DNA of 53,321 bases from assembly GCF_004010195.1 (NCBI RefSeq), contig NC_057718.1, forward strand, positions 8,269,552-8,322,872, written 5' to 3'. Below are positions 1,295 to 47,087 of this stretch, piece after piece. The stretch's first letter is position 1. Each line of letters starts with the position of its first letter. The DNA is from Chiloscyllium plagiosum. Lineage: Eukaryota. Made by a program: the position numbers and the translations under genes. The notes under the pieces are model-generated. The model was not told the DNA's origin and did no database searches. It saw only the letters and a list, made by a program, of their open reading frames with translations.

Positions 1295-2841
1295 CAAAGG
1301 CCTTACGTTCATCCCCCTCCGTTCAGGCATCAACAAATTCAATACGCAGTATGACATCAAACACTTCTTCTGCCACCTCCATCTCCGAGCTTACTTTTTC
1401 AATCAACACTCCTGCCCATCTTCCAAGGACCCCTTCTCCCACCTCCAACACATTCCACCCACCTGGACACCCCATGCTGACCTATCACCCGCCCTCGACC
1501 TCTTCATTTCCAACTGCCACATTCCACTCCGACCTTAAGTTCACCTGGACCATCTCCGATACCTCTCCCCCTTTCCTGGACCTCTCCATCTCCATCAACG
1601 GTAACTGACTCAATACTGACATTTTCTACAAACCCACCGACTTCCACAGCTACCTGGATTACACCTCCTCCCAACCAATCTCCTGCAAAAATGCTATCCC
1701 GTATTCCCAATTCATCCGCCTCCTCCGTATCTGCTCCCAGGCGGACCAGTTCCACCACAGAACACACCAGATGGCCTCCTCCTTTAAAAACCACAATTTT
1801 CCCCTCCCACATCGTTGGTGAGATCCAGTGCATCTCACCCACGTCCCGCACCTCCACCTTCGAATCCCACCCCTCCAACCGCAACAAGGACAGAACATAC
1901 AGGTCCTCACATTCCACCCCACCAAACTTCGTACACATCGCATCATCCTCCGCCATTTCTGCCACCTAGAAATGGACCCCACCAACAGAAATATTTTTCC
2001 CTCCCCACCTCTATCTACTTTCCGTAATGACTATTCCCTCTGTGACTACCTCGTCAAGTCCACTTCACCCGCCAACAACCCACCCTCCCCTCCCCTCCCG
2101 GCACCTTCCCCTGCCACCGCAGGAAATGCAAAACCTGCGCCCACGCCTCCCCCCTCACCTCTGTCCAAGGTCCCAATAGAGCCTTCCACATCCATCAAAG
2201 TTTCACCTGCACTTCCACACATGTCATTTACTGCATCTGTTACTCATGATACGGTCGCTTCTACATTGGGGAGACAGGATGCCTACTCACAGAACGCTTT
2301 AGGGAACATCTCTGGGACACCCATACCAGTCAACCCCACCACCCCGTGGCTGAACACTTCAACTCACCCTCCCACTCCGCCAAGAACATGCAGGTCCCGG
2401 ACCTCCTCCATCGCCACTCGCTTACCACCCGATGCCTGGAGGAAGAACACCTCATCTTTTGCCTCAAAACCCTCCAACCCCATGGCACCAATGTGGATTT
2501 CATCAGTTTCCTATTTCCCCATCCCCCCACCTTACCCCAGTTCCAACCTTCCAGCTCAGCACCATTCTCATGACCTGTCCCATCGGTCCATCTTCCTTCC
2601 CACCCATCTGCACCACCTTCTCCTCTGACCCATCACCCTCACCCCCACTTCCATCCATCTCAGCTACCTCCCCTGACCATTTATCTCTCCACCCCCGAAG
2701 CTCCCAGCTTCGTTCCTGATGAAGGGCTTTTGCCCGAAACGTCGATTTTCCTGCTCATCGGATGCTGCCTGACCTGCTGTGTTTTTCCAGCACCACACTC
2801 TTGACTCTAACCTCCAGCATCTGCAGTCCTCACTTTGGCCT
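1295..2841 (+). mobile_element. Penelope-like element (Neptune-type), internally deleted, with RT C-terminus, GIY-YIG endonuclease and 3' repeat
   Basis: Frameshifted peptides SKGLTFIP..., LKFTWTISDTSPPFLDLSI, DIFYKPTD..SYLDYTS..NAIPYSQFIRLLRICS, Cys motif CHRRKCKTC and VIYCI..FYIGETG..ERFREH. Flanked by agatataacctcaag (1280-1294) and agatattgcctcaag (2842-2856), a 13/15 TSD. Confidence 0.9.
2716..2745 (+). ncRNA. Minimal type I hammerhead ribozyme-like motif in PLE terminal repeat
   Basis: CTGATGA-A-GGGC-TTTT-GCCC-GAAA-CGTC: both core boxes, a 4-bp stem II, palindromic ACGT and a GUC triplet. Confidence 0.75.
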
Positions 2842-3689
2842 AGATATTGCCTCAAGTCTCTTTGATCATTCACTGGTGTCCAAATGCTGTCACTCTGTTT
2901 CAGATGATAGCCCCCCAGTAATCTACCCATACGGAGTTTTATCTACCAGAACAAGTTTGTACTGTGGTTATGTGACCACTAAAAACTGACAGACTGCTCA
3001 ATTTAAACGGATGATAACAACAGAACGAAACAGTATGTACTCAGTGTTGAGAAGAACAATAAGTTCAGAAATAAATGAAATCGTATTAACAGTTAAAATG
3101 AACCATCTGGGAAATCACTGAATTACAGCATAACAATGCACTTGATAGTATGACCATTTTTCAAGATCGACTTTGGCTAATAATTAGCTAAATGAAGCAG
3201 TGGTTTAGTTGGGTTAATTATCTACATTTCTATTTGGGACATGTGGTTTAAATAATTGAGACCCGCACTGCAGCTCAATAAGTGCTCCTTTCCTCCAGAT
3301 GGCCAGCTTCAGCAAAACAAATTGGTTGGTTCGAAAATTCTGACAACTCACTCGTGGTAAACAAGCTTGAATCAAAAACAATCCTCTTCAGGGATACAAA
3401 TTACTCACTGGAGAACTCAGAGGAAAATCATCGATCAGGGAACTGGATTGCCTTGGTTCATTTTCAGGCCAAATGAAATACAAAGTTCTCTTAATAATCT
3501 TATACATCTACTAAATTTATACAAGGATACGTAAACATCAATTTGACTTGGTAAAGAGCAGATCCTGCAAATAACTTGCAACAAAATGAAGAAATTAATA
3601 ACCTTGAATATGCCAAAACCTCAGTTGGGCCATTCTACTCTGGTTGAAAAATAGCCCAGTTTCCGAATGTGAGGAGACATGGGGGATGA

Positions 3690-4175
3690 TGACATAAGGA
3701 GTCTGCAGAGGGATACGGAACAAGTTGAATGTGAGACTATGTGCTTTGGCAAGAAAGATCGAGGAACTAAATATTTAAATGGTGAAAGACTGCAGAAAGC
3801 TGCAGCACAAAGGCAGCCTTCATATGTCACAAAACATTGGCATTTAAGCTCAATAGGTAATAAGGCAGGCAAGTTCAACAGGTAATAGGCAAGGTACATG
3901 GAATATTCGCCTTAACTTCAAACAGAATGGAATGCAAAACAGGGAAGTCTTATTGAAACGATACAAAGCAATAGTTAGATAACACCTAGAATATTGTGAA
4001 CAGTTTTGGTTTCATTGTCCAAGGAGAGATGTTCTTGTATGGGAAGTAGTCCACAGGCGGTTTGACTATGTCGATCCTAAGTCTTCTGAAGCCAAGTTCA
4101 GTAGCTTGGGCCTGTATTCATTGTAATTAAGAAGAATGAGCAGCGAATATATTGAAACATATGAAGCTTTTAGGA
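3690..4175 (+). mobile_element. Degraded CR1 LINE fragment (RT C-terminal region)
   Basis: Peptide remnants SLQRDT..., KYLNGERLQK and ..LEYCEQFW resemble the CR1 copy at 45585-47087. Confidence 0.7.
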
Positions 4176-4224
4176 GCGGAAAGGGCTGCTGCATGATTCC
4201 CTTCTCTATCCAATCTCAGGTCCA

Positions 4225-4800
4225 CAAGATTTAAAAACTGGAAGCAGCAGTAGGTCAGTTAAGCCTTTAAGCCCGCTCTGCCATTCAACAGGATCATAGC
4301 TGTTCTCCTACTTTCTTTCCATTGATCCTTGATGCATTTAATAACTAAACAGTTGGCTTTTTTGAATATACTCAGTGACTCAGCCTCCACAGCCTTCTAT
4401 GGTTGTGAATTCCACAGGTTGACTGCCCTCTGAGTGAAGAAATATTTCCTCGTCTCAGTCCTAAATGGCCTACCTATATATTCTGAGATTGTGACCTGAT
4501 TTGAGGCTTTCCAACCAGAGGAAACATCCTCTCTACATCTAGTCTATGAATGCCTTTCATCTTCCTAAAGTCTAGTGAATACAGGCCTAGTCAAATCAAT
4601 CTCCCCTCATACAGCAGTCCTGTCTTTCTTGGTATTAGTTGAGTGAACTTTTGCTGCATTCCTTCTGTAGGAAACATATCTCCTCAAGTTAGAAGACCAA
4701 AACTATACAAAATACTCCAGGTGTCTCACATTCTATAACTGCAGTAAGATATCATTGTTTCTGAACTCGAAATGAAGGCCAATATAAGTTGCCTTAGAGT
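4225..4800 (-). mobile_element. CR1 LINE 3' end fragment
   Basis: Reverse-strand CR1 3' motifs (cagcctccacagcc..gaattccacagg..ccctctgagtgaagaaat; aaatactccaggtg). Confidence 0.7.
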
Positions 4801-4804
4801 TATG

Positions 4805-5116
4805 ATTAGATTACCTACAGTATGGAAACAGGCCCTTCAGCCAAACAAGTCCATACCGACCCTCCGAAGAGTAACCCACCCACACCGATTCCCCATATGT
4901 ACCCCTGACTAATGCACTAACACTATGGGCAATTTAGCATGGCTAATTCACCTAACCTGCACATTTTTGGATTGTGGGAGGAAACCGGAGCACCTGGAGG
5001 AAACCCACGCAGACACGGGGAGAATGTGCAAACTCCACACAGTCGCCTGAGACTGGAATTGAACCCAGGTCCCTGTCGCTGTGAGGCAGCAGTGATAACC
5101 AATGAGCCACCGTGCC
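4805..5116 (-). mobile_element. HE1 SINE (tRNA-derived V-SINE)
   Basis: Reverse complement of tRNA-like head, V-domain (ggagtttgcacattctccccgtgtctgcgtgggtttcctcc) and CR1-like tail (gggcctgtttcca..taatct). Confidence 0.92.
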
Positions 5117-7380
5117 ATTATTTACCCCATTCTTGCTTGTCTACTTTCATTGGCCGCAACACAAGGACACCTAGGTCCATTTGTACATCCACTCCTAATA
5201 TATCACCATTTTTAATGAAACGTTACCATTCTAGTTTTTGACAGGCTTTTGAACAGGTTTTCAAGTTGCTTTTGTTTCAATCAAGAGTGCAGAAGGTCAT
5301 GCTAGGAACAGCACCAGATATAAGAACAAAATCAAGAGTTAACCTGTAACACAGGACTACCTGCAAGCTAAACAATATTAGCAGAAACTGATAAGTGGGA
5401 TAAACAATTCCACAATAATTGGATGAGATCCAAGATCAGCAGTCCTGCCACCCCAGCATGAATGATCATGGATGATTAAATAACTCACTGCAGGAGAACA
5501 CTCCACAAATATCCCTATACGCATCAGCACGAAAGACAAAGCTGAAGTGGATGATCCATCTCAGCTTCCTCCAAAGATGCCGATAGCACTGATGACAGTC
5601 TGCAGCCAATTCAATTCTCTCCAGAAAATATCAAGAAATAGCTGAAGGCACTGGATACTGAAAAAGCTATGGGCTCTGTTAGCATTCTGGCAATAGTACT
5701 GAAAACTCATGCTCCAGAACTTGCCATGTCTCTAGCCAAGCTGTTCCAATACAGCTACAACAATGCCCTACATAGAAAACTACCTCGGGATGTCATGTAT
5801 ACAAAAAAGCAAGGTAAATACAACTTGGCCTATTACTGCCTTATCGGTTTGGTCTCAAGGCACTATTCAAGAAATAATAGGGGTCATCAACAGTTTTATC
5901 ACATACCAGTTGCTTTGTAAAAACCTTTTCACTGAAGCTCAGTCTGGGTTCTGCCAAGGCCACTCAGCTCCTGACCTCACTACAGCTTTTCTTGAAACGT
6001 GGACAATGGAGCTGAACTCCACAAGTGAGGTGGGAGTCGCTGTCCTTATATCAAGGTGGCATTTGATCACACTTGGCATTAAAGAGCTCTCTATAATCTA
6101 GAGTCAATGAGTATCAAGGAAGAAACACTCTATTGGTTGGAGTCATACATGGCACTTACAGGGGATGGTTGTGATAGTTGGAGGTCAGTCATCTCGGTTC
6201 GAGGACAACTCTGCATCAGTTCCTCAGTGTAGTTCCCTTGGCCCATCCGTGTTCAGTTGCTTCATAAGATGCGAAGTAGGGATATTCACTATGGTTGCAT
6301 AATGTTCTGTGCCATTTGCAATTCCTGAGGTACTGATGCAGTTCATGTCTAAATGCAGCAGAACCTGGACAATGTCTATGTTTGGGCTGACAACAATTAC
6401 AACATAAGACATAGCAGTAAAGTCTTTGAATGCAGAGCATTCAATGAGAACATGGCTGATAATCCTCAAATCCACTTTCCTGCCTTTTCCCCATAATGTA
6501 TAATTGTCTTATTGATTAAATTCTATTGCAGCCTTGAATAAATCTAACAAATTAGCCTCAACAGCCCTCTGCGGTAAAGAATTCCACAGACTTGCTACTC
6601 TCTGAGAAGAAATTCCTTCTCACCTCTGTTTTAAATGCATGACCTTAGTCTGGGATTCAATAGGTTTTCTCTCATTCATTTAAATTCTAATACATACAGG
6701 ACCAACCTACCTGATGTCTCCTCATAAAACAGTCCCTCCATACCTGGTATCAATCTAGTGAACCTTCTCTAGAGAGTCTCAAATACCAGTATATCTTTCC
6801 AGAGATGAAGGGCCCAAGACTGTTCTTAGTCTGTCTAGTACCTTGTAGAGTTTAGGAAAGCTTCCCTATTTTTATACTCCATTCCCTTTGAAATAAAGGT
6901 CTTCATTCCACTTGCTGTTAGCCACTGAGCTTGGATGCTATCTTTTTGAGACTCATCATTGAGGACTCAGAAATCACTCTTATTGTGCACCTTTCTGCAG
7001 TCTTTTTCCATTTAAGGTCCTCTATTCTTCTTGCCAAAGTGCATAGCATCACATTTCCCCCCATCATATTCTTCATAGCAAGTTTTTCCCACTCACTTTA
7101 TCAGTTGCTATCCCTCTGCAGATTCAATTATCCTTACCACCTGTCTTCCACTTGTCATCTGCAAAGTTGGCTGTAGTTCACTCACTTTCCTCATCCAAAT
7201 TATTACAAGTATTAGAAATAATTGCAATCTCAGCACTGATAACTGTGACATTCCACTAGTTATAAATGCCATCTGGAAAATGCCCCTTTTATCCCAACTC
7301 TATTTTCTATTAGTTAGCCAATCATCTATCCATGCTAATACACTACCTCCAATACCATGGATGCTTATCTTATTAAGTAG

Positions 7381-7493
7381 ACAAGCAGGAGGTTGGGAGA
7401 ACACAGCAAGCCAGGCAGGATCAGGAGGTGGAGAAGTTGACGTTTAGGGTGAAACCCTTCTTCAGAAACGTTGACTTCTCCACCTCCTGATGC
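7381..7493. mobile_element. PLE terminal-repeat fragment with inverted duplication (fold-back)
   Basis: Arms 7420-7445 and 7466-7491 are reverse complements at 24/26 positions. The minus strand carries CTGAAGA-A-GGGT-TTC-ACCC-TAAA-CGTC, a hammerhead with a mutated GAAA box. Confidence 0.75.
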
Positions 7494-7523
7494 TCCTCAT
7501 TTATCTATCCCGCGTGTTACCTT

Positions 7524-7748
7524 TAGATTAGATTAGATTACATTACATTACATTACAGCGTGGAAACAGGCCCTTCGGCCCAACAAGTCCACACCGACCC
7601 GCCGAAGCGCAACCCACCCATGCCCCTACATTCCCTTATCTAACACTACGGGCAATTTAGCATGGCCAATTCACCTGACCTGCACATCTTTGGACTGTGG
7701 GAGGAAACCGGAGCACCCGGAGGAAACCCACACAGACACAGGGAGAAC
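7524..7748 (-). mobile_element. HE1 SINE, 5'-truncated, young subfamily with (GTAAT)n(CTAAT)n tail
   Basis: Very similar to the 3' part of the HE1 at 36736-37041; lacks the tRNA head. Confidence 0.92.
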
Positions 7749-8789: not shown

Positions 8790-8890
8790 GTTTTGAGGAA
8801 GGGTCATATGACCTGAAATGTTAACTCTATTTTTTCTCCACAGATACCTCCAGATCTGCTGAGCTTTTCCAGTAATTTATGTTTTTGTTT
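8790..8890 (+). mobile_element. Degenerate PLE terminal repeat with decayed hammerhead-like motif
   Basis: TTGAGGA-A-GGGTCA-TA-TGACCT-GAAA-TGTT followed by ..cagatctgctgagcttttccag, as in other PLE repeats. Confidence 0.55.
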
Positions 8891-10822: not shown

Positions 10823-11110
10823 GCCTACCATGTGGAAGCAGGTCATCAAGTCCACACCAACCTTGCCAAGAGCATCCCACCCAGACCCACCCTTCTACCT
10901 TGTCCCTGTAATCCTGTATTTCTCATGGCTGATCCACCTAACCTGCACAGCTTTGGAGTGTGGAAGGAAACCAGAGCACCGGGGGAAAACCCATGCAGAC
11001 GTGGAGAGAACGTGCAAACTCCAATCAATTAGTCACCTGAGGCTGGAACCGAACCTGGGTCCCTGATGCTATCAGGCAGCAATACTAACCACAGAGCCAT
11101 TGCGCCATCC
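10823..11110 (-). mobile_element. HE1 SINE (diverged)
   Basis: V-domain and tRNA head in reverse orientation. Confidence 0.88.
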
Positions 11111-11339
11111 AATTAAATAAAAAAACAAACATATATTGATATAGCACCTCTGTGATCATTCTGTGATCTTAAAAAGGAGGTGGAAGCAGAGCCTTTGAAT
11201 CTTTTTAACGCAGAGCTACACAGATTCTTAAATAGGCAAGTGGAAGATGATTGGGGGAATGTGGAGTAACCCTCATATAACTGATAGGTGGAGCAGGCTT
11301 GAGGGGAGAGTGGCCTACTCCTGCCACAAATGTGTCTTT

Positions 11340-13889: not shown

Positions 13890-15128
13890 TAATGGAACAT
13901 TAATCAACTCCAGCCTCCCTGCTACTCTTGACCCACTCCAATTTGCCTATCGGACGAACAGATCTACGTCAGATGCCATATCCCTTGCCCTTCACTCCTC
14001 CCTAGAACATCTTGACACATTACAGCTACGTAAGAATCCTACTCATTGACCATAGTTCAGCCTTCAACACTATTACCCCCTCAAGACTGATTACTAAACT
14101 TAGTGATCTCAGACTAAGCCCCACTCTCTGCAACTGGATTCTCAGTTTCCTGACCCACAAGCCACAATCAGTGAAGATTGGGGACAATATTTCATCCTCA
14201 CTAACACTCAATACTGGAGCCTACCAGGGGTGCATACTCAGCCCCCGACTGCACTCACTGTATACCCATGACTGTGTCGCCAAATACCAGACTAATGTCA
14301 TTTACAGGTTCGCTGATGACAACACCATAGTCAGTCGAATCTCAGGTGGTGATGAAACAGACTGCAGACGGGAGGTGGAAGACCTGGAAAAATGGTGCAC
14401 TGAGAACAACCTAGCTCTCAATGCCAGCAAAACCAAGGAATTCATTATTGATGTTCGGTGGGATGTTACTCATGGCCCCCCTACACATTAACAGCACAGT
14501 GGTGGAAGGAGTGGAGAGTGTCAAGCTCCTGGGAGCAGTCATCTGCAACAAGCTTTCTTGGACTCTTCAAACGGACACACTGGTTACAATGGCCCAACAT
14601 CTCTTTCTTCCTCAGGCAGCTGAGGAAATTTGGCATGATGGCAAATACCCATGCCAACTTTTATGGGTGCGCCACCAACGGCATTTTGTCTGGATGTATC
14701 ACTACCTGGTATGGCAACTGTACCATTCAAGATCGGAGATGGTTACAGAAGAATGATGAACTTGGTCCGGACAATCACAAAGGCCAACCTCCCATCTATA
14801 GAATCCATCTACCCGGCCCGCTGTCAAGGAAAGGCTGCCAGCATTCTCAAAGATCTATCCCACCCTGGCAACCTCTACCATCGGGGAGAAGGTACAGAAG
14901 CCTGAACACACGCACCAGCCGGTTTCAAAACAGTTTCTACCCTACTGTTGTTAGAATATGAATGGACTCTCATACTCTTAACATTTGCCTGTCCCTGTGT
15001 TTTTGTTTTTGCCACTGTTTACCTATTATTTACTATCTACGCTACTTAGCTCTGTGATCTGCCTGTATTGCTCGAAAGACAAGGCTTTTCACTGTGCCTC
15101 GGTACATGTGACAATAAATTCAATTCAA
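13890..15128 (+). mobile_element. Rex1/Babar-clade LINE, 5'-truncated, frameshifted RT
   Basis: [78 protein letters not shown]. The 3' end is caataaattcaattcaa. Confidence 0.9.
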
Positions 15129-16242: not shown

Positions 16243-16583
16243 TCATAGAAACCCTACAGTGTGGAAACAGACTGTGTGGCCCAACAAGTCAATACCGACC
16301 CTCTGAAGAGTAACCCATTCAAACCCATTTCCCTACCCTATTATTTACCCCGACTATGGAACGTAACCTACATATCCGAACACTATGGGCAAATTAGCAT
16401 GGCCAATTCATCTAACCTGCACATCTTTGGATTGTGGGAGGAAACCGAAGCACCCAGAGGAAACCCACGCAGACACGGGGAGAATGTGCAAACTCCACAC
16501 AGACAGTTGCCCGAAGGTGGAAACGAATCCGGGTCCCCAGTACTATGAGGTAACAGTGCTAACAACTGAGCCATCACGCCACC
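16243..16583 (-). mobile_element. HE1 SINE
   Basis: Head, V-domain and tail in reverse orientation. Confidence 0.92.
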
Positions 16584-16713: not shown

Positions 16714-16815
16714 ATTTTGAAGAGTGTGTTGCTGGAAAAGCACAGCCGGTCAGGCAGCATCCGAGAAGCAGGAGAGTCAACGTTTCGAGCATAAGCTCTT
16801 CATCAGGAATGATGT
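16714..16815 (-). mobile_element. 102-bp PLE terminal-repeat insertion with intact hammerhead motif and 10-bp TSD
   Basis: TSD tgtggatgtg at 16704-16713 and 16816-16825. Minus strand CTGATGA-A-GAGC-TTAT-GCTC-GAAA-CGTT (16806-16779). Confidence 0.85.
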
Positions 16816-17866
16816 TGTGGATGTGGTGCCAATCAAGTGGGCTATTTTATCCTGGATAATGTTAAAAGTTCTTCAGTGCTGTTGGAGCTGCTCTCATCCA
16901 CACAAGAGGGGAGTATTGCATCATACTTTGGACTCATGCCTTGTAGATGATGGACAGATACTGGTAAACGGAAAGCAACTTTCTCTCTGCAGAACACCAG
17001 GACACCAACTTCTTCTGTCCTGAGGCCAAGAGGATACACCACCTGAAACCACAACCACCTTGCTTTATTAGAATTGCTCCACCTAACTAAGAGATTTTCC
17101 CATCAATTCTCTTTGACTCAAGTTTTTCTTGACAACACGTGGGGTGAACTGAGTTGGTTCAAGACTGGCATTTGAGAAGCTGAGGTCTGCAGGATGCGAT
17201 TGGATGGACCATCCACCTGGTACTGCTGGCTGAAGACTGGTACAAATGCTTCAACCATGACTTTCGCACTGATGTGCTGGGGTGTAACTTCATTGAGGTT
17301 GGGGATATTTTTAGAGGCACCAACTTCTGTTAGTGGCAGGGCTTGGTTCTAACCCATTGTTTATGGGATCACTCAGTTGAATCTACAGTCTGCCGCTTTC
17401 ACTGCTTGACACACACAGGCCATCTTGTGCTGTAGCTTCACCAGTTGGCACATTGCTTTAAGCTATACACTCCTGGCATGTCTCCCTATACTGTTTATTG
17501 AACCAAGATAGTCATTAAGTGTAATTCATGCTGTCTGATGATGGCTTGTGCAGTTCAGCTTTTCTACCCCAGTTGATGTCTCTCCTGTATTTAGCTGACG
17601 GAAATTGGCAAGGACATTCGATTATGGACTGTCTTCACCATATTTGACACCATGCTCTACCTAGTACAGGCTGTGATCCTCACCAGTGAATCCAACACAG
17701 ACTCAAATGTCAGTAAACTTAGGTAAAGCAAGGCTGCATCATTGCACGAATGCTCTCTTCCATTTCACTTACTACAACATCCCACCCAATATCCATGAAG
17801 CTTCCTTGAATAGAACTTGGAGCTTCTATACAGGATTAGTAGCATTGCTTCCAGTCCAGAAGTCTA

Positions 17867-18167
17867 GAAACAGGCCATAAGGCCCAACGAGTTCACAATG
17901 ACCCTCCGAAGATTATCCCACCCACTCTGTTACTTTACATTATCCTGACTAATGCAACTAACCTACACATCCCTGAACACTATGGACAATTTAGTATTAC
18001 CAATTCACCTAACCTGCACATCTTTGAACTGTGGGAGGAAACTGGAGCACCCGGAGAAAACCCACGCAGACACGGGGAGAATGTGCAAACTCCACACAGT
18101 CGCTCGAGGCTGGAATCGAACCTGGGTCCCTGCCACTGTGAGGCAGCAGTGCTAACCATTGAGCCAC
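17867..18167 (-). mobile_element. HE1 SINE
   Basis: Head, V-domain and tail in reverse orientation. Confidence 0.9.
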
Positions 18168-18194
18168 TCTATGTAGAGATATTTGACAGAACAG

Positions 18195-19499: not shown

Positions 19500-19591
19500 T
19501 TTCTCCTTGGATGCTGCCTGACCTGTTGCGCTTTTTCAGCAACACATTTTTCAGCTCTGATCTCTAGCATCTGCAGTCCTCACTTTCTCCT
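19500..19591 (+). mobile_element. PLE terminal-repeat 3' fragment (no hammerhead)
   Basis: Near-identical to 27088-27175 (ctccttggatgctgcctgacctg..ctgcagtcctcactttctcct). Confidence 0.85.
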
Positions 19592-20771: not shown

Positions 20772-20821
20772 CTGAAAATGTGTTGCTGGAAAAGCGCAGC
20801 AGGTCAGGTAGCATCCAAGGA
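20772..20821 (-). mobile_element. Short PLE terminal-repeat fragment
   Basis: ctgaaaatgtgttgctggaaaagcgcagcaggtcagg.agcatccaagga matches 26115-26164. Confidence 0.75.
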
Positions 20822-25140: not shown

Positions 25141-25179
25141 AAACACAGCATCTCTCCCAAGCACACTGGCAGAAAAATG

Positions 25180-25335: not shown

Positions 25336-25667
25336 ATCATAAAATCATAGAATCCATTGAATGTGGAATCAGGCCATTCAGTACATCGAGTTCACACTGA
25401 CCTTCTGAAGAGCATCCCACTCAGACTCACCCTCCCTAACCCTATAACCATGCATTTCCCATAGCTAACCCACCTAGCCTGCAGGTCCTGGATACTATGG
25501 GTAATTTAGCATGGTCAATCCACCTAATCCGCACACCTTTGGACTCTGGGAGGAAATCAGAGCATCTAGAGGACACCCATGCAGAAACAGTAAGAATGTG
25601 CAGACTCCACTCAGAGAGTCGCCTGAGGTTGGCACTGTGAGGCAACAGTTGCTAACCACTGAGCCAC
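25336..25667 (-). mobile_element. HE1 SINE (diverged)
   Basis: V-domain and head remnants in reverse orientation. Confidence 0.85.
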
Positions 25668-26086: not shown

Positions 26087-26110
26087 TAATATAGCTTATT
26101 TCTTATAATC

Positions 26111-27173: not shown

Positions 27174-27549
27174 CTTATTTCTTACAATCCCTAAAGGTAA
27201 ATGGTTCATTTGGCTTCAGGCTACTTTGGTCACTAAAAGACTTTCTCATATGCATCAGATTTGGGCAGAAAGTCTTTTTAGTGTTTGCTGCTGTTTACTC
27301 TTCAACCTAGATTACAGACATACTGCGAGACAATCCATGTAGCGCCCTGTAACAGTGCACTTACATTGAAGTGTTGGTCATGTACATTCCACACATTGTT
27401 GCGCACAGTGTCAAAACTAAGTGCAGTGAAGTGGGGTGTGAACAATGGGTACTGTTTAATTTGTGTCCCGCTACAGCTTCAGAGCTAGGTCTCAGGTCAC
27501 TGTCACTCCTTGCTTACATTGATCCACCCTTCATAAACAACAGAATCTT

Positions 27550-29888: not shown

Positions 29889-30016
29889 TTGTGAAATCTT
29901 CCCGCACGATCTTCAGTGTCTGCGTAGAGGAACATCTTATAGGCATAGTTCTCAATGTGGGCATTCCCCACCACATCCTGCGTAATGGATTCATTGTCAC
30001 CCAATTGCTTCTTCAT
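29889..30016 (-). CDS. vta1: vta1 coding exon (equivalent to exon 3), 128 nt
   Basis: tttttttggtctccctttcag|ATG AAG AAG...TTT CAC AA|gtgagt translates MKKQLGDNESITQDVVGNAHIENYAYKMFLYADTEDRAGRFH(K). Phase 0 start matches the upstream exon; recognisable VTA1 MIT region. Confidence 0.97.
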
Positions 30017-31199
30017 CTGAAAGGGAGACCAAAAAAAAAGCGACAGGCTTTAATATCACAACAGCAGTTTTTTTTCAGGTACAATTGCATTTTCTTGACA
30101 GTGAGGTGAAGAGCTTTGGGTGGAAAGGTTTTTGGCTCAGTGATTTGAAGCGAAATGTTTCCTTCCAGCAAGTTACAAAAATATAAATTGCTTGGTGTTA
30201 CATTAGCACTGATCCCTAATTTACCTAGTATTCCCTCTAATTCTCAATAACTACATGACCTTGGCCTTGCACCATGTCCAAAAGGATTGCTATTTATTAC
30301 TGAGTGGCAGAAGATATCATTCAATGAGCATGATTAATTATGAACGGATGTGGCATGACGTTTGGATCCAAATATGCTATTAGACTCATAATTTTTGAAT
30401 GGATTGAAACCTGACTGTGCAAAGACCATAAATTGCAAGCTCCACCAGGAGTCCTTAAAATTCTGGTGAAGTTTAACAGCCTGTAAAAGTAGCCCTTCTG
30501 AGCTTTATAAGGACTCCAACAGGAGGTGAGATAGGGAATCGTATTTCAGAGCCTGCCTTGGAAGTGGTACTTTCAAGTAGGAGGTAAGGCTGACATTTTC
30601 CATGTAGTTACAATTAAACTTTTTATTTGAAAGCAAAGCTCTCGCATAAACCAGTGTTAAACCATAAGTGACTTCGCAATAAAATGGTAGAATTAGCAAA
30701 ACAACTACAATGCTATATATCTTATGTAACCATTGCATTTCATCACAACAAAAGGGAACTTTTGCATAAATAACTATACTTATGAGGTTTCAATCTTTGA
30801 ATGGTGCTAATTGAGAAATGCTGTATGTTTCTGTATATTGTTTGAAAGATCTTCTTTGAAATAATCACAAGCTTACAGAAAGTATTTCAGAAGACATTGC
30901 AGGATTCAAGCATGTACTTTTGAGACCTTCAGAACTCAAAGGATCCATATTGCTTGACAGTATATATTTCAAAGCTCCCAGCCGAGTTAAATGCAACAAC
31001 TTCTAACAAGCCCTATTGCCAAAAACTCAAATTTCTTATCTTTTGAATGATAAAAGCCGCTGGTGAATTGTACCACAATAGTAAACAATACCATTCTGTT
31101 AGGAGGGAATTTGAGACAGGACATGAAGCAGATGTATTAGAATTGCTCTGTTGGGCTGGAAAAGGGGAAAACAATATTAGAGTTCCCGCTTCTAGTGGA

Positions 31200-36379: not shown

Positions 36380-37420
36380 AAACATTTGAGTGATCAATTT
36401 CATTTGCTTAAGTGCTACATCAAAGCTTACCGTGGAAAACAAATGTTCATGGTGGAGTGGGGAACATATTGACATGGTTAGAAGATTGGCTTGCTAATAT
36501 GGATCAAAAAGTTGGCATAAGGGAGTCATTTTCAGGCTGGCAAGTTGCAGCAAGTGATGTGCCACAATGATCTATGATCAGGAGCAGACCTCAATTGCTT
36601 ACAATTATGTAAGTAACTTGGATGAAGGGATGGAGGATAGGGTTGCCAAATTTTCTGAAGACACAAAGAAAAATAGGAAACTTAGTTACGATAAGGACTT
36701 AAAGAGGCTTCAAAATGATATTGATCCGTTAAGTGGGCGGCACGGTGGCACAGTGGTTAGCACTGCTGCCTCACAGCGCCTGAGACCCGGGTTCAATTCC
36801 CGCCTCAGGCGACTGACTGTGTGGAGTTTGCACGTTCTCCCCGTGTCTGCGTGGGTTTCCTCCGAGTGCTCCGGTTTCCTCCCACAGTCCAAAAGATGTG
36901 CAGGGTCAGGTGAATTGGCCATGCTAAATTGCCCGTAGTGTTAGGTAACGGGTAAATGTAGGGGTATGGGTGGGTTTCGCTTTGGCGGGTCGGTGTGGAC
37001 TTGTTGGGCCGAAGGGCCTGTTTCCACACTGTAATGTAATCTAAGTGAGTGGACATAGATCTGGCAAATGGCCTGAAATGGGGTTAATGTCGAAAATCCA
37101 CTTTTTCAGGAAGAAGAAAGAAAACATATCATCTAAACGGTGAGACATTGCAGATGCAGAGGGATCTAGGTGCCCTGCTTGAGGGTCAAAGTAACGAGGA
37201 AATTGAGTTGACATTTAAACAGATGAAGACATTATTGAGGATTGGCCGTCTTTGGAACTCTCTTCTTCATAAGGAGGCAGAAGCAAAGTCCTTGAATATT
37301 TTTAAAGGAAAATATAGACTCTTGTCAGGTTATCAGGGATAGTTGGAAACACAGAGGAAGCTACGACCAGATTAGCCACGATCGTATTCATTGGTTGAGT
37401 AGACTCAAGAGGCTTAATGG
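36380..37420 (+). mobile_element. CR1 LINE RT fragment interrupted by HE1
   Basis: WLEDWLAN, NLDEGMEDRVAKFSEDTK and LQNDIDPLS|EW..WQM continue across the SINE. Confidence 0.8.
36736..37041 (+). mobile_element. Full-length young HE1 SINE with 6-bp TSD
   Basis: A-box tggcacagtgg, B-box ggttcaattcc, V-domain and tail gtaatgtaatc. TSD taagtg at 36730-36735 and 37042-37047. Confidence 0.95.
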
Positions 37421-38745: not shown

Positions 38746-39071
38746 GCGTGATCATCCCCCGATATTGAAGCATATCACATCTACATTGTCTTGGGGAATC
38801 ACAGAGTCAGGAAATCATTTGCACAACGATTCCCCACGATGAGTGCATTTACATTATCTCCGAGGATGACCTCATCTGACCACTGTACCTGGGGTAACAT
38901 AGTTATGGGGAGGAGTGCCCAGAGTATCTGTGAGCCTTACCAACTGACCAGTGTAAAGGGAATGGTTTTTTTTATACGAGGTCTCTTTGATTGACTTGAC
39001 TTCACACGCCTGCAAAGAGTGTCAAAGGGGTCTCCTAGCTTGTACAGGCTTTAATAAACTTTAACTTTATA

Positions 39072-39405
39072 GGCAGCATGGTGGCACAGTGGTTAGCTCT
39101 GCTGCCTCACAGCGCCAGGGAGTTGAGTTCAATTCTCACCTCAGACGACTGCCTGTGCGGAGTTTGCACATTCTCCCAGTGTCTGCATGGGTTTCCTCTG
39201 GGTGCTCCAGTTTCCTCCCACAATCTAAAGATATGCCGGTTGGGTGAATTGGCCATGTTAAATGGTCCCATAATGTTAGGTGCATTAGTCAGAGGTAATT
39301 GTAGGGTGGGGGAATGGGTCTGGGTGGGTTACTCTTCAGAGGATTGGTGTGGACCTGTTGGGCCAAATGGCCTGTTTCCATACTGTACGTAATCTAATTT
39401 AATCT
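39072..39405 (+). mobile_element. HE1 SINE
   Basis: Head, V-domain and tail. Confidence 0.92.
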
Positions 39406-42002: not shown

Positions 42003-42295
42003 GGCTGCACGGTGGTTCAGTGGTTAACACCGCTGCCTCACAGCGCCAGGGACCTGGGTTCGATTCCAAACTCTGGCAACAGTCTATTTGGAGTTTGCAC
42101 ATTCATCCCGTGTCTGCGTGTGTTTCCTCCCACAGTCCAAAGATGTGCAGGTCAGGTGAATTGGCCACGCTAAATTGCCCATAGTAGTGTTAGGTGCATT
42201 AGTCAGCGGGAAATGGGTCTGGGTAGGTTACTCTTCGGAGGGTCGGTGTGCACTTGTTGGGCCGAAGGGCCTGTTTCCACACTGTAGGGGTTCTA
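42003..42295 (+). mobile_element. HE1 SINE
   Basis: Head, V-domain with a small deletion, and tail. Confidence 0.92.
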
Positions 42296-42391
42296 ACAAA
42301 ATGACTCCAAGTGAAAAACAAACCCAAGCTTGTCCAATCTCTCCCTGTAGCTCATACCCTCCAAACCAGATGGCATCTTGGTAAACCATTT

Positions 42392-42682
42392 GGGGGCAAC
42401 ACTGTGGCTCAGTGGTTAGCATTGCTGCCTCACAGCACCAGGGTCCCAAGTTCGATTCCAGCCTCGGGCGACTGTGTGGAGTTTGCACGTTCTCCCTGTG
42501 TCTGTGTGGGTTTCCTCTCTCAGCTAGTCAGGTGAATTGGCCACGCTAAATTGTCCACAGTGTTCAGGGATGTGTAGGTCAGTTGCATCAGTCAGGGGTA
42601 ATGAGTCTGGGTGGGTTACTCTTCAGAAAGTCAGTGTGGACTTATTGGGCCAAAGGGCCTGTTTCCACACTGTAGGGATTCT
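42392..42682 (+). mobile_element. HE1 SINE (tandem neighbour)
   Basis: Head, V-domain with a different deletion, and tail. Confidence 0.9.
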
Positions 42683-43313
42683 AGCTCTGAAGCTGAACGT
42701 CCTAAATGCTACGAGCTCTTACTCTTTAAAATGAGCAAGTGTAAAGTATGTGGAAAATCATTAATGGTTAAAATAAGTTGTAGGATAACAGATTCTTGAC
42801 ATTGAATCACATGTCAAGTAAGGGATATTAACAGAGGACTATGTAGCAAATACTTGAGTGCAAACTACAGGTTTGCAATCAGGGGCATGCAATGAGAGAA
42901 TATTAATTGCGTAATTTGTTTTCACACTGGTTAGCTGAGATGTGAGAAGCAGCAGGGCTTTCTAACATGGGTTGGGAGACAGGATTGAGGGAGAAAGCAG
43001 TCAGACAATTATTGCATTTGGTGGAAGAGTCGTACAAGCTTTTGGCACAGAGGTCTAAGAGAGGAATGAAAATAACCACATTAGGAGGGGAACAGTATGG
43101 AGTCAGCACATTAAACGGCAAGAGCAAATGACATAGGAATGTGCAGTGCCTGAAGATCATGCTTTCCCCCCCAACTTCGAAATCAAATGTGAAGTTAACT
43201 CACTGTATCTTGCCAATCATCTAAATGTGCCTTTCTAATTCACTCCCCATTTTGCTGCTGCCATCAGTCCCAATCATATTCATCATATACCACACGCAAT
43301 CATTAAATATAAT

Positions 43314-43761
43314 GAAAGTTAGCCACCAGGATACATGAACACCAGCTAGCCACAAAAAGACACAACCCTCTCTCCCTCGTAGCCCTACACACGGATGAAA
43401 AAAAACACCATTTCGACTGGGACAACACATCTATCCTGGGACAGGCTAAAAGACATGCCAGAGAATTCCTAGAGCCCTGGCACTCCAACCACAACGTCAT
43501 AAACAAACACGTAGATCTAGATACCATCTATCAACCCCTCAGAAAACGAACAGGAAATGACATCACCACAAACCCCAGGAACCCCATCCAGGACAAACAT
43601 ATAAATAGAAAGCAGGAGACAACAGCTTCGCTTCACTTGGAGGTCGCCACTGATGATGTTACCTAGCCAGGTAATGAAACGTCTGGATATCAAACCTACA
43701 GCTCAGCGAGCAAACCTACACCCTAAACCTCAACCTGAGCTACAAACCTTCACAAATCTTG
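43314..43761 (+). mobile_element. 5'-truncated PLE (third family, Poseidon/Penelope-type) with GIY-YIG C-terminus, hammerhead and 13-bp TSD
   Basis: Open frame KLATRIHEHQLATKRHNPLSLVALHTDEKKHHFDWDNTSILGQAKRHAREFLEPWHSNHNVINKHVDLDTIYQPL. TSD cattaaatataat at 43301-43313 and 43762-43774. Confidence 0.88.
43647..43686 (+). ncRNA. Minimal type I hammerhead ribozyme motif
   Basis: CCA-CTGATGA-T-GTTACCT-AGCC-AGGTAAT-GAAA-CGTC-TGG: stem I CCA/TGG, 7-bp stem II, palindromic ACGT, predicted cleavage after GUC (43683). Confidence 0.8.
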
Positions 43762-43874
43762 CATTAAATATAATCTCCATACTTTGCCCTCCTGATCCAC
43801 GTTCAGCAAATTATTTGGACTTAGTCTACCAGAATCATAATTTCTGAAATCACGATTGTCCTTTTGGGAAGGAA

Positions 43875-44172
43875 GATTAGATTACTTACAGTGTGGAAAC
43901 AGGCCCTTCGGCCTAACAAGTCCACACTGACCCGCCAAAGCGCAACCCACCCAGACCCATTCCCCTACACCTAACACTACGGGCAATTTAGCAATTCACC
44001 TAACCTGCACATCTTTGGACTGTGGGAGGAAACCAGAGCACCCAGAGGAAACCCACGCAAACACGGGGAGAATGTCTGTGTGGAGTTTGCACAGTCGCCT
44101 GAGGCGGGAATTGAACCCGGGTCTCTGGCGCTGTGAGGCAGCAGTGCTAACCACTGTGCCACCGTGCCGCCC
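43875..44172 (-). mobile_element. HE1 SINE with internal micro-inversion, inserted in an older SINE (which continues at about 44180-44325, +)
   Basis: Full head and tail; 44076-44090 is inverted relative to other copies. Confidence 0.93.
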
Positions 44173-44336
44173 ACGGTGCCATAGTGAGGAAGCTGCCATC
44201 CTCACCTGGTCTAGCCTATACTTGACTGCAGAGCCACAACCACGTGGTCAACACTTAATTGTCTGCTGGGCAATAATTGCTGGCCTGGCCAGTGATGCTC
44301 ATTCGTCGTGAATGAATAAATAAAATAAAGATGACA

Positions 44337-44507
44337 GCGCAACCCACCCAGACCCATTCCCCTACACCTAACACTACGGGCAATTTAGCATGGCCAATTC
44401 ACCTAAACCTGCACATTTTTGGACTGTGGGAGAAAACCAGAGCACCCGGAGGAAACCCACGCAGACACGGGGAGAATGTGCAAACTCCGCACAAATAGTT
44501 GCCTGAT
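44337..44507 (-). mobile_element. HE1 internal fragment truncated at both ends
   Basis: V-domain region only; its first ~54 bp are identical to 43940-43993. Confidence 0.88.
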
Positions 44508-45584
44508 TTTCAACTTTGTCCACCCCAATCCAACATCGGCATCGCCACATCACTGTTACCAAGTCATTCAGTGTCTATTACAAGTCAACCACGTAGTGTA
44601 CACTAGAGTTTGAACAAGCATTGACAAAGCACTAGTTGGGTCTTGATAAAAGGTACAATAGAATCACACTCATTTCCCTATTCTTAATAACAGTCTGGCA
44701 TTACTGTCATATTCTTATGCTAACTCACAAATTACCTATTTTATTGTGTTCAATAACAATGGGCAATGATGGGATTTAATTTCTCAATTTCTGGATTGCG
44801 AATCCAGGGCCAAAAATCACATAATATCTGGAGCAATAGTTTGGTTTTGTGCTTAGTAGCACCACACAATAGAAGATTTAGATATCAAAGAGCAGTTGAG
44901 CGTTTTAAAAAAAGTCTTGAAAATTCCAATCGTTTGCCTGTCATGATCTTCTGACCATACAACAGTTCTATTTGGGACACCAATATTTACCAATTTTTTT
45001 TTTTGAGATTCTCAGATAGGCAAAATGTTTCCGGACATTTTCCATTTAACCAAATTGTTCAGCTTTGAAGTTTTAATGATTTTAGGGTTATTGTCTTATT
45101 TCACAATGTGAACTGTCACAATTGAACTTTCCTTTCGCACAAGATTGGATTCAAATGTTCAGATCCCTATATGGACCAGAAGGTCAATTCCAATAGACCA
45201 CAACTCTCAATATTACTCTGAACTCCTTACTATGTTACAGTATAGAATGTGTCAGACATTTGTGCTTCTTTCACATTATGAGAGACTTGTGCAGGGTCCA
45301 GGTGGATTAATACTCAGTGTTCTTGCAGCTCAGCAAAAGATATCTGCCTCCTGCTAGGTGCTCAAAAATTGCTTGTGCAGTAAAACACAAAGAAATACTC
45401 AGTAGCAGTCAGAAATTCATCTGCAAACATCTCATAAATAAGCTAAGTGCAGATTAGAAACAAACTCAATACTGCACTTTAATACTGTGGAATGACGCAT
45501 CATAATTAGGCACCTCACATCAGTGCTCAAGTAGAGACATAGCAACTTTTTAATGCTGAGTTTTGTTTTCCTAATGAACTGTAG

Positions 45585-47087
45585 GAAGACTGCAGGTTGG
45601 ATAACATGATGTCACTGTTTAAGAAAGGTAGCAAGGACAAGCCAGGGAACTATAGACCAGTGAGCCCGATGTCAGTGGTGAGCAAATTGTGGGAGGGAAT
45701 CCTGAGGGACAGGATGTACATGTATTTGGAAAGGCAAGGACTGATTAGGAATAGTCAACATGGCTTTGTGCATGGGAAATCATATCTCACAAACTTGAGT
45801 TTTTTGAAGAAGTAACAAAGAGGATTGATGACGGGAGAGCGGTAGACATGATCTCTATGGACTTCAGTAAGGTTCCCCACAGGAGACTGATTAGATCTCA
45901 TGGAATACAGGGAGAACTAGTCATTTGGATACAAAACTGGCTCAAAGGTAGAAGACAGAAGGTGGTGTTGGGGGGTTGTTTTTCAGATTGGAGGCTTGTG
46001 ACCAGTGTAGTGCCACAAGGATCGGTGCTGGGTCCTCTACTTTTCATCATTTATATAAATGATTTGGATGTGAGCAAAAGAGGTACAGTTAGTAAGTTTG
46101 TAGATGACACCAAAATTGGAGGTGAAAAGTGTGGTGCTGGAAAAACACAGCAGGCCAGGCAGCATCCGAGGAGCAGGAGAATCGACGTTTCGGGCATAAG
46201 GCCTTCTTCAAAATTGGAGGTGTAGTTGACATGAAGAAGGTTACCTCAGGTTACAACAGGATCTTGATCAGATGAGCCAATGGGCTGAGAAGTGGCAAAT
46301 GGAGTTTGATTTAGATAAATGCGAGATGCTGCATTTTGGGAAAGCAAATCTTAGCAGGACTTATACACTTAATGGTAAGGTCCTCGGGACCGTTGCTGAA
46401 CAAAGAGACCTTGGAGTGCAGGTTCATAGCTCCTTGAAAGTGGAGTCGCAGGTAGATAGGATAGTGAAGAAGGCATTTGGTATGCTTTCCTTTATTGGCC
46501 AGAACACTGAGTACAGAAGTTGGGAGGTCATGTTGCAGATGTACAGGACATTGGTTAGGCCATTGTTGGAATATTGCGTGCAATTCTGGTCTCCTTCCTA
46601 TCAGAAGGATGTTTTAAAACTTGAAAAGGTTCAGAAAAGATTTACAAGGATGTTGCCAGGGTTGGAGGATTTGAGCTATAGGGAGAGGTTGAATAGGTGG
46701 GGCTGAGGCTGAAGGGTGACCTTATAGAGGTTTATAAAATCATGAGGGGCATGGATAGAATAAAATAAACAAGGTCGTTTACTAGGGATGGCAGAGTCCA
46801 GAACTAGAGGGCATAGGTTTAGGGTGAGAGCAGAAAGACATAAAAGAGACCTAAGGGGCAACGTTTTCACGCAGAGGATAGTGCATGTTGGAATGGGCTA
46901 CCAGAGGTGGAGGCTAGTACAACTGCAACATTTAAAAGGCATTTGGATGGGTATGTGAATAGGAAGGGTTTGCAGGGATATGGGCCAAGTGATGCCTGGT
47001 GGGACTAGATTGGGTTGGGATGTCTGGTCAGCATGGACGAGTTGGACCTAAGGGTCTGTTTCCATGCTGTACATCTCTATGATTCTA
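45585..47087 (+). mobile_element. CR1 (HER1-like) LINE, 5'-truncated, frameshifted RT
   Basis: KKGSKDKPGNYRPVS, VPQGSVLGPLLFIIYINDLD, KFVDDTKIGG, RTLVRPLLEYCVQFWSP. The 3' end is tctctatgattcta. Confidence 0.95.
46125..46208 (-). mobile_element. 84-bp PLE terminal-repeat insertion with 14-bp perfect TSD
   Basis: caaaattggaggtg at 46111-46124 and 46209-46222. The minus strand begins in the hammerhead core (TGAAGA-AGGCCTTATGCCC-GAAA-CGTC). Confidence 0.92.

Follow-up and report, generated by a model that had tools for sequence, protein, structure and literature searches.

We analysed a 53,321-nt stretch of the genome of the shark Chiloscyllium plagiosum (NCBI RefSeq assembly GCF_004010195.1, contig NC_057718.1, forward-strand positions 8,269,552–8,322,872; hereafter the window), in which a sequence-only reading had noticed hammerhead ribozyme motifs seeded by several families of Penelope-like elements (PLEs) into introns of the vta1 gene. 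The closest described motifs are the minimal type I hammerheads of PLEs, which are characterized by an unpaired base between positions 9 and 10.1, a G10.1-C11.1 pair, a palindrome at 15.2–16.2, a short helix I, and pairs of motifs on opposite strands; they are widespread as single copies and have low in vitro activity, being active only as dimers (Cervera and De la Pena 2014, PMC4209133). In the Poseidon element PAc of Anolis carolinensis, reverse transcription is initiated internally, at two neighbouring sites some 110 nt beyond the hammerhead, a tail of 30–40 bp corresponds to the sequence between these two sites, cutting and extension take place on both strands of the DNA, insertion is unaffected in hammerhead mutants, and cleavage needs protein (Frangieh et al. 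2024, PMC11167929). The Penelope signature consists of an adjacent inverted 5′-truncated copy, a target-site duplication (TSD), a tail at one end, and a TATA box with an initiator (Inr) in the pseudo-long terminal repeat (pLTR) (Arkhipova et al. 2013, PMC3846280; Craig et al. 2021, PMC8557442), and the inverted structures of PLEs often break assemblies (PMC8557442).

The sites in the window are likely minimal type I hammerhead motifs in the 3′-terminal module of PLEs that have been amplified to very high copy number in the shark genome. They are copies of three interspersed repeat families, denoted A, B, and C, and not an artefact. The three families have a common layout: a CUGANGA...GAAA core, the letters of which are identical across A, B, and C, an unpaired base before stem II, a stem II of 4–7 bp, and a palindrome, ACGU or AGCU, in place of helix III. 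The match to the published minimal type I PLE hammerhead, as it had been proposed, extends to the CUGANGA and GAAA boxes, the unpaired base, the helix III palindrome, and the short helix I, and all of the published hallmarks that can be read from sequence, including G10.1-C11.1 and the palindromic 15.2–16.2, are present. The extra nucleotide after CUGANGA, which had been taken for a shark variant, is a general hallmark of the PLE motifs according to Cervera and De la Pena 2014 (PMC4209133). The supplementary alignment of that paper has the same layout, and its lamprey helix I, UCAC/GUGA, is that of shark family C. The motifs described there likewise lie on opposite strands, 100–700 bp apart, and occur mostly as single, widespread copies from truncated PLEs. 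Stem II has 4 bp in shark family A and 7–8 bp in the Schistosoma families of the same paper, where copy numbers of about 4,000 in coelacanth and about 9,000 in Xenopus are called remarkable, as compared with 87,506 intact motifs in shark family A. No cartilaginous fish occurs in the text portions or the supplement file of PMC4209133 that were covered, and no report of hammerheads in shark PLEs was found in the literature, with the limit that an entry in uncovered supplements cannot be excluded; PLEs themselves have been reported in elephant shark and whale shark.

A search descriptor was written from the published features (CTGANGA, 0–1 bulged base, helix II of at least 4 bp, loop of 3–10 nt, GAAA, A-xy-U with x and y complementary, H17 not G, helix I of at least 2 bp) and was compared with a null of 200 dinucleotide shuffles of the window. 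It matched four sites in the window, 2716(+), 16806(−), 27050(+), and 43650(+), and no match was obtained in any of the 200 shuffles; the bare heptamer CTGANGA occurs at chance level (42 matches in the window against a shuffle mean of 36.2, with 16 of 100 shuffles reaching 42). With a stricter helix I (at least 3 contiguous pairs), 43650 was the sole site in the window to pass. The sequence-only reading had placed cores at these four sites and at 25297(−), 26202(−), and 46210(−), with decayed copies near 7465 and 8793, and the motif described was found on the strand indicated at every one of them. The stems that it named were also confirmed, namely GGGC/GCCC, GAGC/GCTC, GGGT/ACCC, and GTTACCT/AGGTAAT for stem II and CCA/TGG (family B) and CAC/GTG (family C) for stem I, as were the helix III palindromes, which are ACGT in families A and B and AGCT in family C.

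The remaining sites fail the descriptor owing to particular defects. A single-base deletion in stem II of 26202(−) leaves GGC/GCC and an unpaired C, 25297(−) has an A·C mismatch in stem II, G12 is U in 7465(−), and 8793(+) has U in place of C3 and a decayed CpG in ACGU. In 46210(−), C3 is absent and stem II contains a C·C mismatch. The absence of this first C had been read correctly, but not as regards its origin: the copy has a 12-bp TSD, AAATTGGAGGTG, at 46113–46124 and 46211–46222, and C3 is absent because the copy was inserted starting at U4, i.e., by 5′ truncation at insertion and not by later loss.

Self-comparison of the window showed that a segment of about 90–127 nt is common to 2716(+), 16806(−), 26202(−), 27050(+), 46210(−), and the decayed 7465(−), which constitute family A, and that 43650(+) (family B) and 25297(−) (family C) are each single. 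A BLAST inventory of the window (E up to 1e-4) gave 10 module copies or fragments, 7 of family A, 1 of B, and 2 of C, with the decayed 7465 and 8793 in addition. The genome searched comprises 3.56 Gb, and reversed-pattern controls gave zero in every genome-wide count. The 28-nt family A motif CTGANGA-A-GGGC-NNNN-GCCC-GAAACGTC has 87,506 exact matches, a 20-mer within the 3′ portion of the family A module has 165,276 exact matches, and the motifs of families B and C have 6,471 matches at up to 2 mismatches and 4,438 at up to 3 mismatches, respectively. Among 41 descriptor matches, the unpaired base before stem II is A in 31 and U in 10, and the helix III position is occupied by ACGU in 39, AGCU in 1, and AUAU in 1, with no helix III hairpin; as compared with the 4–5 bp of helix I that are expected around the core and cleavage site of a PLE minimal hammerhead, contiguous helix I pairs number 2 in 20 matches, 3 in 11, 4 in 4, fewer than 2 in 5, and 8 in 1. 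The G10.1-C11.1 closing pair of helix II is G-C in family A, G·U in B, and G-C or G·U in C (CUCC or CUCU). Helix I of family A is mostly AUUC/GAUU, and AUUC/GAAU in one subfamily.

The connection with PLEs comes from the open reading frames (ORFs) adjoining the modules. Homology of the family A copy at 2716 to other genomic copies extends more than 1.1 kb upstream of the core and includes the ORF 2250–2573(+), for which a first look gave 107,218 relatives in the genome. Three of four better-preserved copies of this ORF match the GIY-YIG endonuclease domain (PF01541, 20–21 bits, E 4e-4 to 9e-4). A database search with the family A ORF found a homologue of 902 aa, P0004 (E 3e-46, 39% identity, 90% query coverage), which passes the Pfam thresholds for both the reverse transcriptase (RT) domain RVT_1 (42.4 bits) and GIY-YIG (32.4 bits); the closest named matches are uncharacterized proteins of Chiloscyllium, Rhincodon, and Stegostoma, and a comparison of the endonuclease fragments with PDB sequences gave no match. 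The family B ORF ends within the hammerhead, with its stop codon in loop II; its sister copies read ...YKVPCKDCHKHYVGQTGRKLATRIHEH..., and their ORFs align to residues 805–879 of P0004, in the GIY-YIG region (E 2e-9 and 6e-9). The module is thus located downstream of the GIY-YIG ORF in family A and overlaps its end in family B, on the same strand in both. Families A and B lie beside GIY-YIG ORFs, and the full-length homologue has both RT and GIY-YIG; they are therefore PLEs. The claim of several PLE families accordingly stands for A and B, and family C would be a PLE by its common anatomy only. The window's own PLE copies are remnants, and the architecture of an RT with a C-terminal GIY-YIG domain is seen in the homologue P0004.

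Two further loci bear on the same elements. At L052 (G000:C13:65041000–65048000), a run of 2,504 N (2326–4829) takes up the greater part of an ORF whose end lies 158 nt upstream of a family A hammerhead. A 987-aa "open frame" at this locus (C13) was rejected as an artefact of the N run, its upstream flank being the RT of an unrelated long interspersed nuclear element (LINE). At L092, a partial family C fragment lies 290 nt upstream of a decayed ORF copy similar to the protein P0005, outside the region common to six such copies, and was judged to be a neighbouring insertion.

The anatomy of the copies was studied in 30 family A loci sampled through the 3′ 20-mer, with no hammerhead required, and classified by eye; signed positions below are counted from C3. 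The sample comprised 16 head-to-head inverted pairs, 6 solo short copies, 7 long copies with conserved upstream sequence, and 1 copy abutting an assembly gap. The solo short copies start 3–5 nt before the CUGA box (−5 to −3), and TSDs are visible in three of them (11 bp in L010, 12 bp in L029, and 10 bp in L032). The 3′ ends of the 30 copies fall at +87 to +97 in 12 cases, at +120 to +134 in 14, and elsewhere in 4. One short and one long arm make up 13 of the 14 evaluable sampled pairs, the other being long/long. A blind test was then made on the first 20 pairs taken by junction alone, after two already seen had been skipped; two of the 20 were unscorable (N run or truncated arm). All 18 evaluable pairs had one long and one short arm, with a tail of 30–40 nt on one arm only; long arms ended at +123 to +129 and short arms at +83 to +97, with one at +108. 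A direct repeat of 8–18 bp flanks 16 of the 18 pairs as a unit, and 8 bp was reached in only 3 of 306 mismatched-locus controls. Both arms usually reach ATTC or CATTC just before the core and are joined with a few bases of overlap.

Pair junctions number 6,352 genome-wide, and most units are ORF-less mini pairs of about 220–245 bp, present in thousands. The 83 module hits include 21 abutting head-to-head pairs, no tail-to-tail pair, and no true same-strand tandem copy; the program TRF found no tandem array in the window. Head-to-head pairs are also present in the other two families, with 3′-end classes at about +75–80 or +115–125 in family B and at +85 or +120–126 in family C, the latter with a sharp start at −3 to −7. 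The family A mini copies and both arms of the pairs end 5′ at −4/−5. Raw RNA reads mark the same module edges: their loose ends cluster at 2713, 2796/2797, and 2836, opposite-strand joints occur at 2713, and 394 reads, which come from many loci, lose homology at 2713 (= −3).

Upstream of the module, TTATCT is the sole invariant block in 11 of 11 long family A copies, which belong to three diverged subfamilies, at about −34 to −29 from C3, i.e., 25–30 nt upstream of the inferred RNA end. This block is invariant amid diverging surroundings (window 2681–2686 and 26231–26236(−); L001, L004, L005, L013, L023, L025, L027, L030, and L036), and a TATA-like box or an opposite-strand GATA site is possible. 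A separate feature of the module is its predicted fold at about +38 to +115 (e.g., L026), in which GGAUGCUG (about +44) pairs with CAGCAUCU (about +108) around an inner UGCUG/CAGCA hairpin. In this predicted fold, a stem would immediately precede each of the family A 3′ ends, an arrangement reminiscent of the AC-rich stem-loop found where RT starts in Anolis.

In family A, the module thus begins about 5 nt ahead of the CUGANGA box and has two alternative 3′ ends, at about +90 or about +125, and the copies are solo fragments with TSDs of varying length, 5′-truncated longer copies, or head-to-head pairs inserted as one event. On this basis, the following scheme can be proposed. The two 3′ ends may be two internal start sites of reverse transcription, as in Anolis Poseidon, and the template RNA would have its 5′ end at the sharp boundary at −4/−5, where transcription probably starts, about 25–30 nt downstream of TTATCT. 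From a fragment keeping such a promoter, a short RNA would be produced that is led by the hammerhead and includes the RT start sites from the outset, and the PLE enzyme would copy RNAs of this kind into promoter-less mini copies, dead on arrival. The presence of the hammerhead in all copies would then reflect its position within the segment that is copied, and not the working of each copy. The genomic copies hold the whole motif; therefore, the template is uncleaved RNA.

The comparison with the published systems is close. As in the Penelope signature (PMC3846280, PMC8557442), head-to-head copies are inserted as a unit with a TSD and a one-sided tail, and a promoter-like box lies upstream of the transcribed part of the pLTR, whereas the shark units are mostly ORF-less mini pairs and their upstream box is TTATCT and not a canonical TATA. 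As with PAc (PMC11167929), two start sites 30–40 nt apart would explain the optional tail, the template is uncleaved RNA, and no RNA ends are seen at the cut. The two differ in the position of the ORF, which in PAc starts inside stem II; in the shark family A copies examined, the module is not continued by a long ORF, and the family B stop codon is in loop II. The shark modules carry the published traits of PLEs; therefore, the known PLE signature is reproduced point by point. The rule that long and short arms are paired is the one-sided tail of the literature, displayed unusually clearly, and the kind of element, a PLE with a minimal hammerhead, is already known; what is notable is the copy number and the clarity of the insertion signature.

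We examined stem II for covariation with the pattern CTGANGAA-[5′ stem]-NNNN-[3′ stem]-GAAACGTC, for which the baseline GGGC/GCCC count is 87,506. The compensatory double GAGC/GCTC was observed 378 times, whereas 16.4 were expected from the singles (1,333 + 1,077), a 23-fold excess. For GGAC/GTCC, also compensatory, 37 were observed against 26.4 expected (singles 1,693 + 1,363; 1.4-fold), and for GGGT/ACCC 37 against 15.8 (singles 1,584 + 875; 2.3-fold); the non-compensatory control GAGC/GTCC gave 37 against 20.8 (singles 1,333 + 1,363; 1.8-fold). The GAGC/GCUC double has its own signature (CUGAUGA and a UUAU loop) and is therefore a subfamily, to which the window copy 16806 belongs. One amplified lineage thus changed a stem II pair and kept pairing, and most of the variation between copies looks like neutral decay of dead copies. 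Between families, a MAFFT alignment put the stems out of register, and pairing was read by eye: stem II is GGGC/GCCC in A, GUUACCU/AGGUAAU in B, and GGAG/CUCC or CUCU in C, all of which pair, and helix I is AUUC/GAUU or AUUC/GAAU in A, CCA/UGG in B, and UCAC/GUGA in C. The compensation in stem II that had been claimed is therefore partly borne out, in the 23-fold enriched double and in family stems that differ yet pair, and not in GGAC/GUCC or GGGU/ACCC, the excess of which is close to that of the control. The core is conserved across three otherwise unalignable families and is therefore probably constrained in the source elements.

That the motifs are or were catalytic, as had been proposed, is a separate conjecture. 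Stem II has a predicted pair probability of 0.81–1.0 in intact modules, and helices I and II occur in the predicted minimum-energy fold of several short constructs. RNAcofold predicted, for two copies, a dimer more stable than two monomers through stem swapping and not through an ACGU helix, which is uninformative on the dimer model. RNA evidence was taken from run X21, raw poly-A single-cell RNA with 2,082 reads on 2560–2900, a library poorly suited to catching cleavage products; a second run, X22, had no reads on the module. Coverage of the module by the X21 reads is about the same in the two orientations, and 99% of the reads continue into unrelated flanks. These reads argue against efficient cleavage of bulk copies in that sample. 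None of the 83 module hits offers a tandem partner for a dimer in cis, which also speaks against catalysis. The copies in the window are relics; four keep the complete motif, and none is placed for a tandem dimer. Judging from the published PLE hammerheads, self-cleavage in the source elements is probably weak, dimer-dependent, or protein-assisted, if it occurs.

Several results weigh against the reading of these sites as PLE hammerhead modules under constraint. The GIY-YIG scores of family A are below the Pfam cutoff of 22.6 bits, the window's own ORF remnants have no Pfam GIY-YIG match, Pfam support in family B amounts to 16.8 bits in one of three fragments, and no ORF-bearing copy of family C was seen among six loci (the window copy included) or at L039. 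A module at the 5′ end of a full-length element was not found at L052 or in the six decayed P0005-like ORF copies, the common upstream region of which contains it in none of six. The transcription start at −4/−5 is placed by copy boundaries and the TTATCT box only. In stem II, two of the three compensatory doubles are near background, and the enriched GAGC/GCUC double may stem from a single ancestral event. Helix I has just 2 contiguous pairs in most family A copies (AUUC/GAUU, 15 of 41 descriptor matches), and in copies of the CUGAUGA type a competing minimum-energy fold is predicted to pair part of the core with ACGUC. In the X21 reads, no molecule starts or ends at the predicted cut, 2743|2744, and depth rises smoothly there without a dip, with the limit that a poly-A library could miss cleavage products.

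The Rfam result belongs here as well. Rfam holds hammerhead families of types I, II, and III, HH9, and HH10. These have the same catalytic core consensus as the shark motifs, which gave no match at any threshold tried: in the whole window and in two 101-nt segments, no hammerhead was found at the gathering score or at E up to 10. This is as expected, because the motifs have no helix III hairpin. The hammerhead search that had been suggested as a check was thus positive with the descriptor and negative with the Rfam models.

Some of these points would suit the explanation that the motif is kept in the source elements for a non-catalytic reason, as a structured RNA that the PLE protein binds, as an element near the promoter or in the 5′ leader, or as part of the translation start, that it never cleaves in vivo, and that its hammerhead likeness is inherited baggage. 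We regard this as possible but doubtful. In Anolis, catalytic hammerhead mutants left in vitro insertion unchanged, the ribozyme cut only with protein, and no RNA-seq reads start or end at the cut (PMC11167929), which resembles the uncleaved template and the lack of read ends at the predicted cut in the shark; moreover, PLEs without hammerheads still proliferate well, and hammerheads might simply parasitize PLEs (PMC8557442). Against this explanation, all catalytic core nucleotides are kept in three families with unalignable stems and flanks, and the family A subfamily differences within the motif, as judged by eye and without statistics, fall on N7, loop II, and one compensated pair. In addition, the published PLE minimal hammerheads do cleave, if weakly, as dimers or with protein (PMC4209133, PMC11167929).

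The host gene bears on the next explanation. An exon at 29882–30019(−) matches Pfam PF04652 (36.8 bits against a cutoff of 26.8) and is the sole Vta1 match of the genome; since this match is in the window on the minus strand, the host gene is vta1, on the minus strand. The placement of the sites in vta1 introns, as it had been described, is thus supported by an exon of this gene in the window and is likely, not established for every site. The minus-strand copies 16806, 25297, 26202, and 46210 are sense to vta1, and they could be active ribozymes cutting host pre-mRNA, to which the complete motif of 16806(−) on the strand of the vta1 exon would lend itself. This is very unlikely: three of these four copies have core or stem II defects, no tandem partner exists among the 83 module hits, helix I has 2 contiguous pairs, and the reads on the 2716 module, which come from many sister copies, have no ends at the cut site.

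Cervera and De la Pena reportedly described non-LTR retrozymes of animals in 2020. Retrozymes resemble the shark modules in being non-autonomous and hammerhead-bearing, an origin from PLE pLTRs has been proposed for them, and their presence in one cartilaginous fish has been reported (Li et al. 2026 preprint). It is nevertheless highly improbable that the shark modules are retrozymes, i.e., tandem hammerhead repeats yielding small circular RNAs, inasmuch as they are dispersed or inverted: no true same-strand abutting copies stand against 21 head-to-head pairs among the 83 module hits, and no array was detected by TRF in the window.

The remaining two explanations are scarcely credible. More than half of the sampled copies are inverted pairs with flanking direct repeats, as in a foldback DNA transposon or a miniature inverted-repeat transposable element (MITE) whose terminal inverted repeats would measure about 125 bp and whose hammerhead likeness would be incidental, but this candidate was rejected as contradicted by direct repeats that vary from 8 to 18 bp, arms that are unequal in 18 of 18 pairs, variable junction points, solo copies with their own TSDs, and a module that continues upstream into a GIY-YIG ORF whose homologue also carries an RT. 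The constant core-side end and variable far end recall at first sight the 5′ truncation of a LINE or short interspersed nuclear element (SINE) on the opposite strand, the "hammerhead" being antisense to the element RNA in its 3′ tail, but the positions of the far end form two distinct groups separated by about 35 nt, the long copies continue beyond the core in the upstream direction, and the ORF of families A and B shares its strand with the hammerhead, so that an antisense LINE/SINE tail is ruled out.

The individual copies in the window can now be placed along it. A 5′-truncated family A PLE copy with ORF remnant, spacer, hammerhead module, and tail occupies 1518–2840(+); it is homologous to L027 and L030 from about −1198/−1112 to +120 relative to C3 at 2716, with a module match at 2713–2836. 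It includes the decayed GIY-YIG endonuclease remnant of the PLE ORF at 2250–2573(+) (...YIGETG..RFREHL...; taken from the ORF list), the TTATCT box at 2681–2686(+), a candidate TATA-like or GATA promoter element, and the complete minimal hammerhead core CUGAUGA-A-GGGC-UUUU-GCCC-GAAA-CGU-C at 2716–2743(+), with a predicted cut after 2743. At 7394–7494(−), the decayed family A copy with U at G12 is joined to an inverted partial copy, and a decayed family-A-like core (UUGAGGA, a GGGUCA/UGACCU stem, GAAAUGU) is located at 8793–8830(+). The short module at 16725–16812(−) is of the compensated GAGC/GCUC subfamily, with its core at 16779–16806 and U at H17. Two family A fragments without a hammerhead were found by self-comparison and BLAST at 19503–19591(+) (+38 to +125) and 20772–20821(−) (+39 to +88). 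The family C module at 25176–25302(−) has its core from 25297, a decayed GAAG/CUCU stem II, the AGCU palindrome, and helix I UCAC/GUGA. A long family A copy at 26108–26460(−), with a short-end module at 26108–26207, the core 26202 with its 1-nt stem II deletion, and TTATCT at 26231–26236, abuts an assembly gap. Across this gap of 579 N it is faced head-to-head by a family A module with a long tail (+125) at 27045–27175(+), the core of which, 27050, has a G10.1·U11.1 pair. The family B PLE 3′ end spans 43316–43763(+) and consists of an endonuclease ORF remnant (43316–43663), the hammerhead (43650–43683, with the stop UAG in loop II), and a tail to 43763. A family C tail fragment (+80 to +119) was found by BLAST at 44513–44552(+). 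Finally, the 86-nt family A mini copy 46125–46210, which starts from U4 of the core, makes up with its 12-bp TSD the segment 46113–46222(−); it is inserted in a LINE and has an empty-site paralogue near 48430.

Three of these copies were noted for their surroundings. The assembly gap 26461–27039 lies exactly between the inverted family A arms 26202(−), with a short end, and 27050(+), with a long end, as in single-event pairs, and inverted pairs probably break assemblies. The LINE fragments 46044–46808 and 48361–49037 are paralogous (82% identity over about 616 nt, with an RVT_1 match in ORF 45755–46222), and the family A mini copy in one of them gives a clean pair of a filled and an empty site. 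At 7417–7494, a near-perfect 22-bp hairpin has weak Rfam microRNA (miRNA) matches (mir-197, 28.8 bits, E 0.7; mir-761; mir-3156). A miRNA gene at this position was rejected, the hairpin being the decayed family A copy with its inverted partial copy.

The rest of the window contains features of other kinds. Among them are at least 11 copies, with 69–93% identity, of a SINE-like repeat that is about 300 bp long and has no relation to the hammerhead modules (16253–16581, 4814–5117, 17861–18166, 36735–37033, 39057–39387, 42013–42295, 42405–42683, 43877–44174, 7543–7748, 10924–11121, and 25344–25632). An RT fragment of another retroelement is located at 14006–14488(+) (RVT_1, E 2.3e-18) and is not next to any hammerhead module. 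In positions 1–4000, the GC skew is strongly negative (−0.42 to −0.24), and long proline-rich open frames run in several frames over the decayed PLE ORF region. A weak U6-like match at 46592–46700(+) has 18.8 bits against a gathering score of 44, far below threshold, and a (CT)n-rich stretch at 47263–47348(−) gives a spurious small nucleolar RNA (snoRNA) match, also far below threshold.

A bolder and improbable extension is that intact hammerhead cores are more numerous in this shark lineage than in any other genome on record (at least 1e5 modules, perhaps over 5e5), caused by a PLE promoter that fires 4–5 nt upstream of the ribozyme, with each promoter-bearing fragment acting as a self-contained hyper-parasite of its parent element. 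If this were true, and if capped leader RNAs self-cleaved with the help of protein, the ribozyme would serve as a switch, by 5′ de-capping or processing, that decides whether translation or retrotransposition follows, and host transcripts could be taxed by intronic copies in sense orientation.

Taken together, our results show that a ribozyme class missed by Rfam models is recognizable by a first-pass reading of the sequence. For annotation, the modules should be masked as PLE fragments, the more so as their inverted pairs mimic miRNA hairpins, as at 7417–7494. Cartilaginous fishes are added to the hosts of PLE minimal hammerheads, with a copy number at least 10 times that of the cases published as "remarkable". 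The shark genome also provides a resource of natural copies, in which intact motifs number in the tens of thousands and single-event pairs with a one-sided tail in the thousands, and to which a compensated subfamily belongs. This resource may be used to study PLE priming from both DNA strands, the model of two start sites outside Anolis, and whether the hammerhead is selected or carried along.

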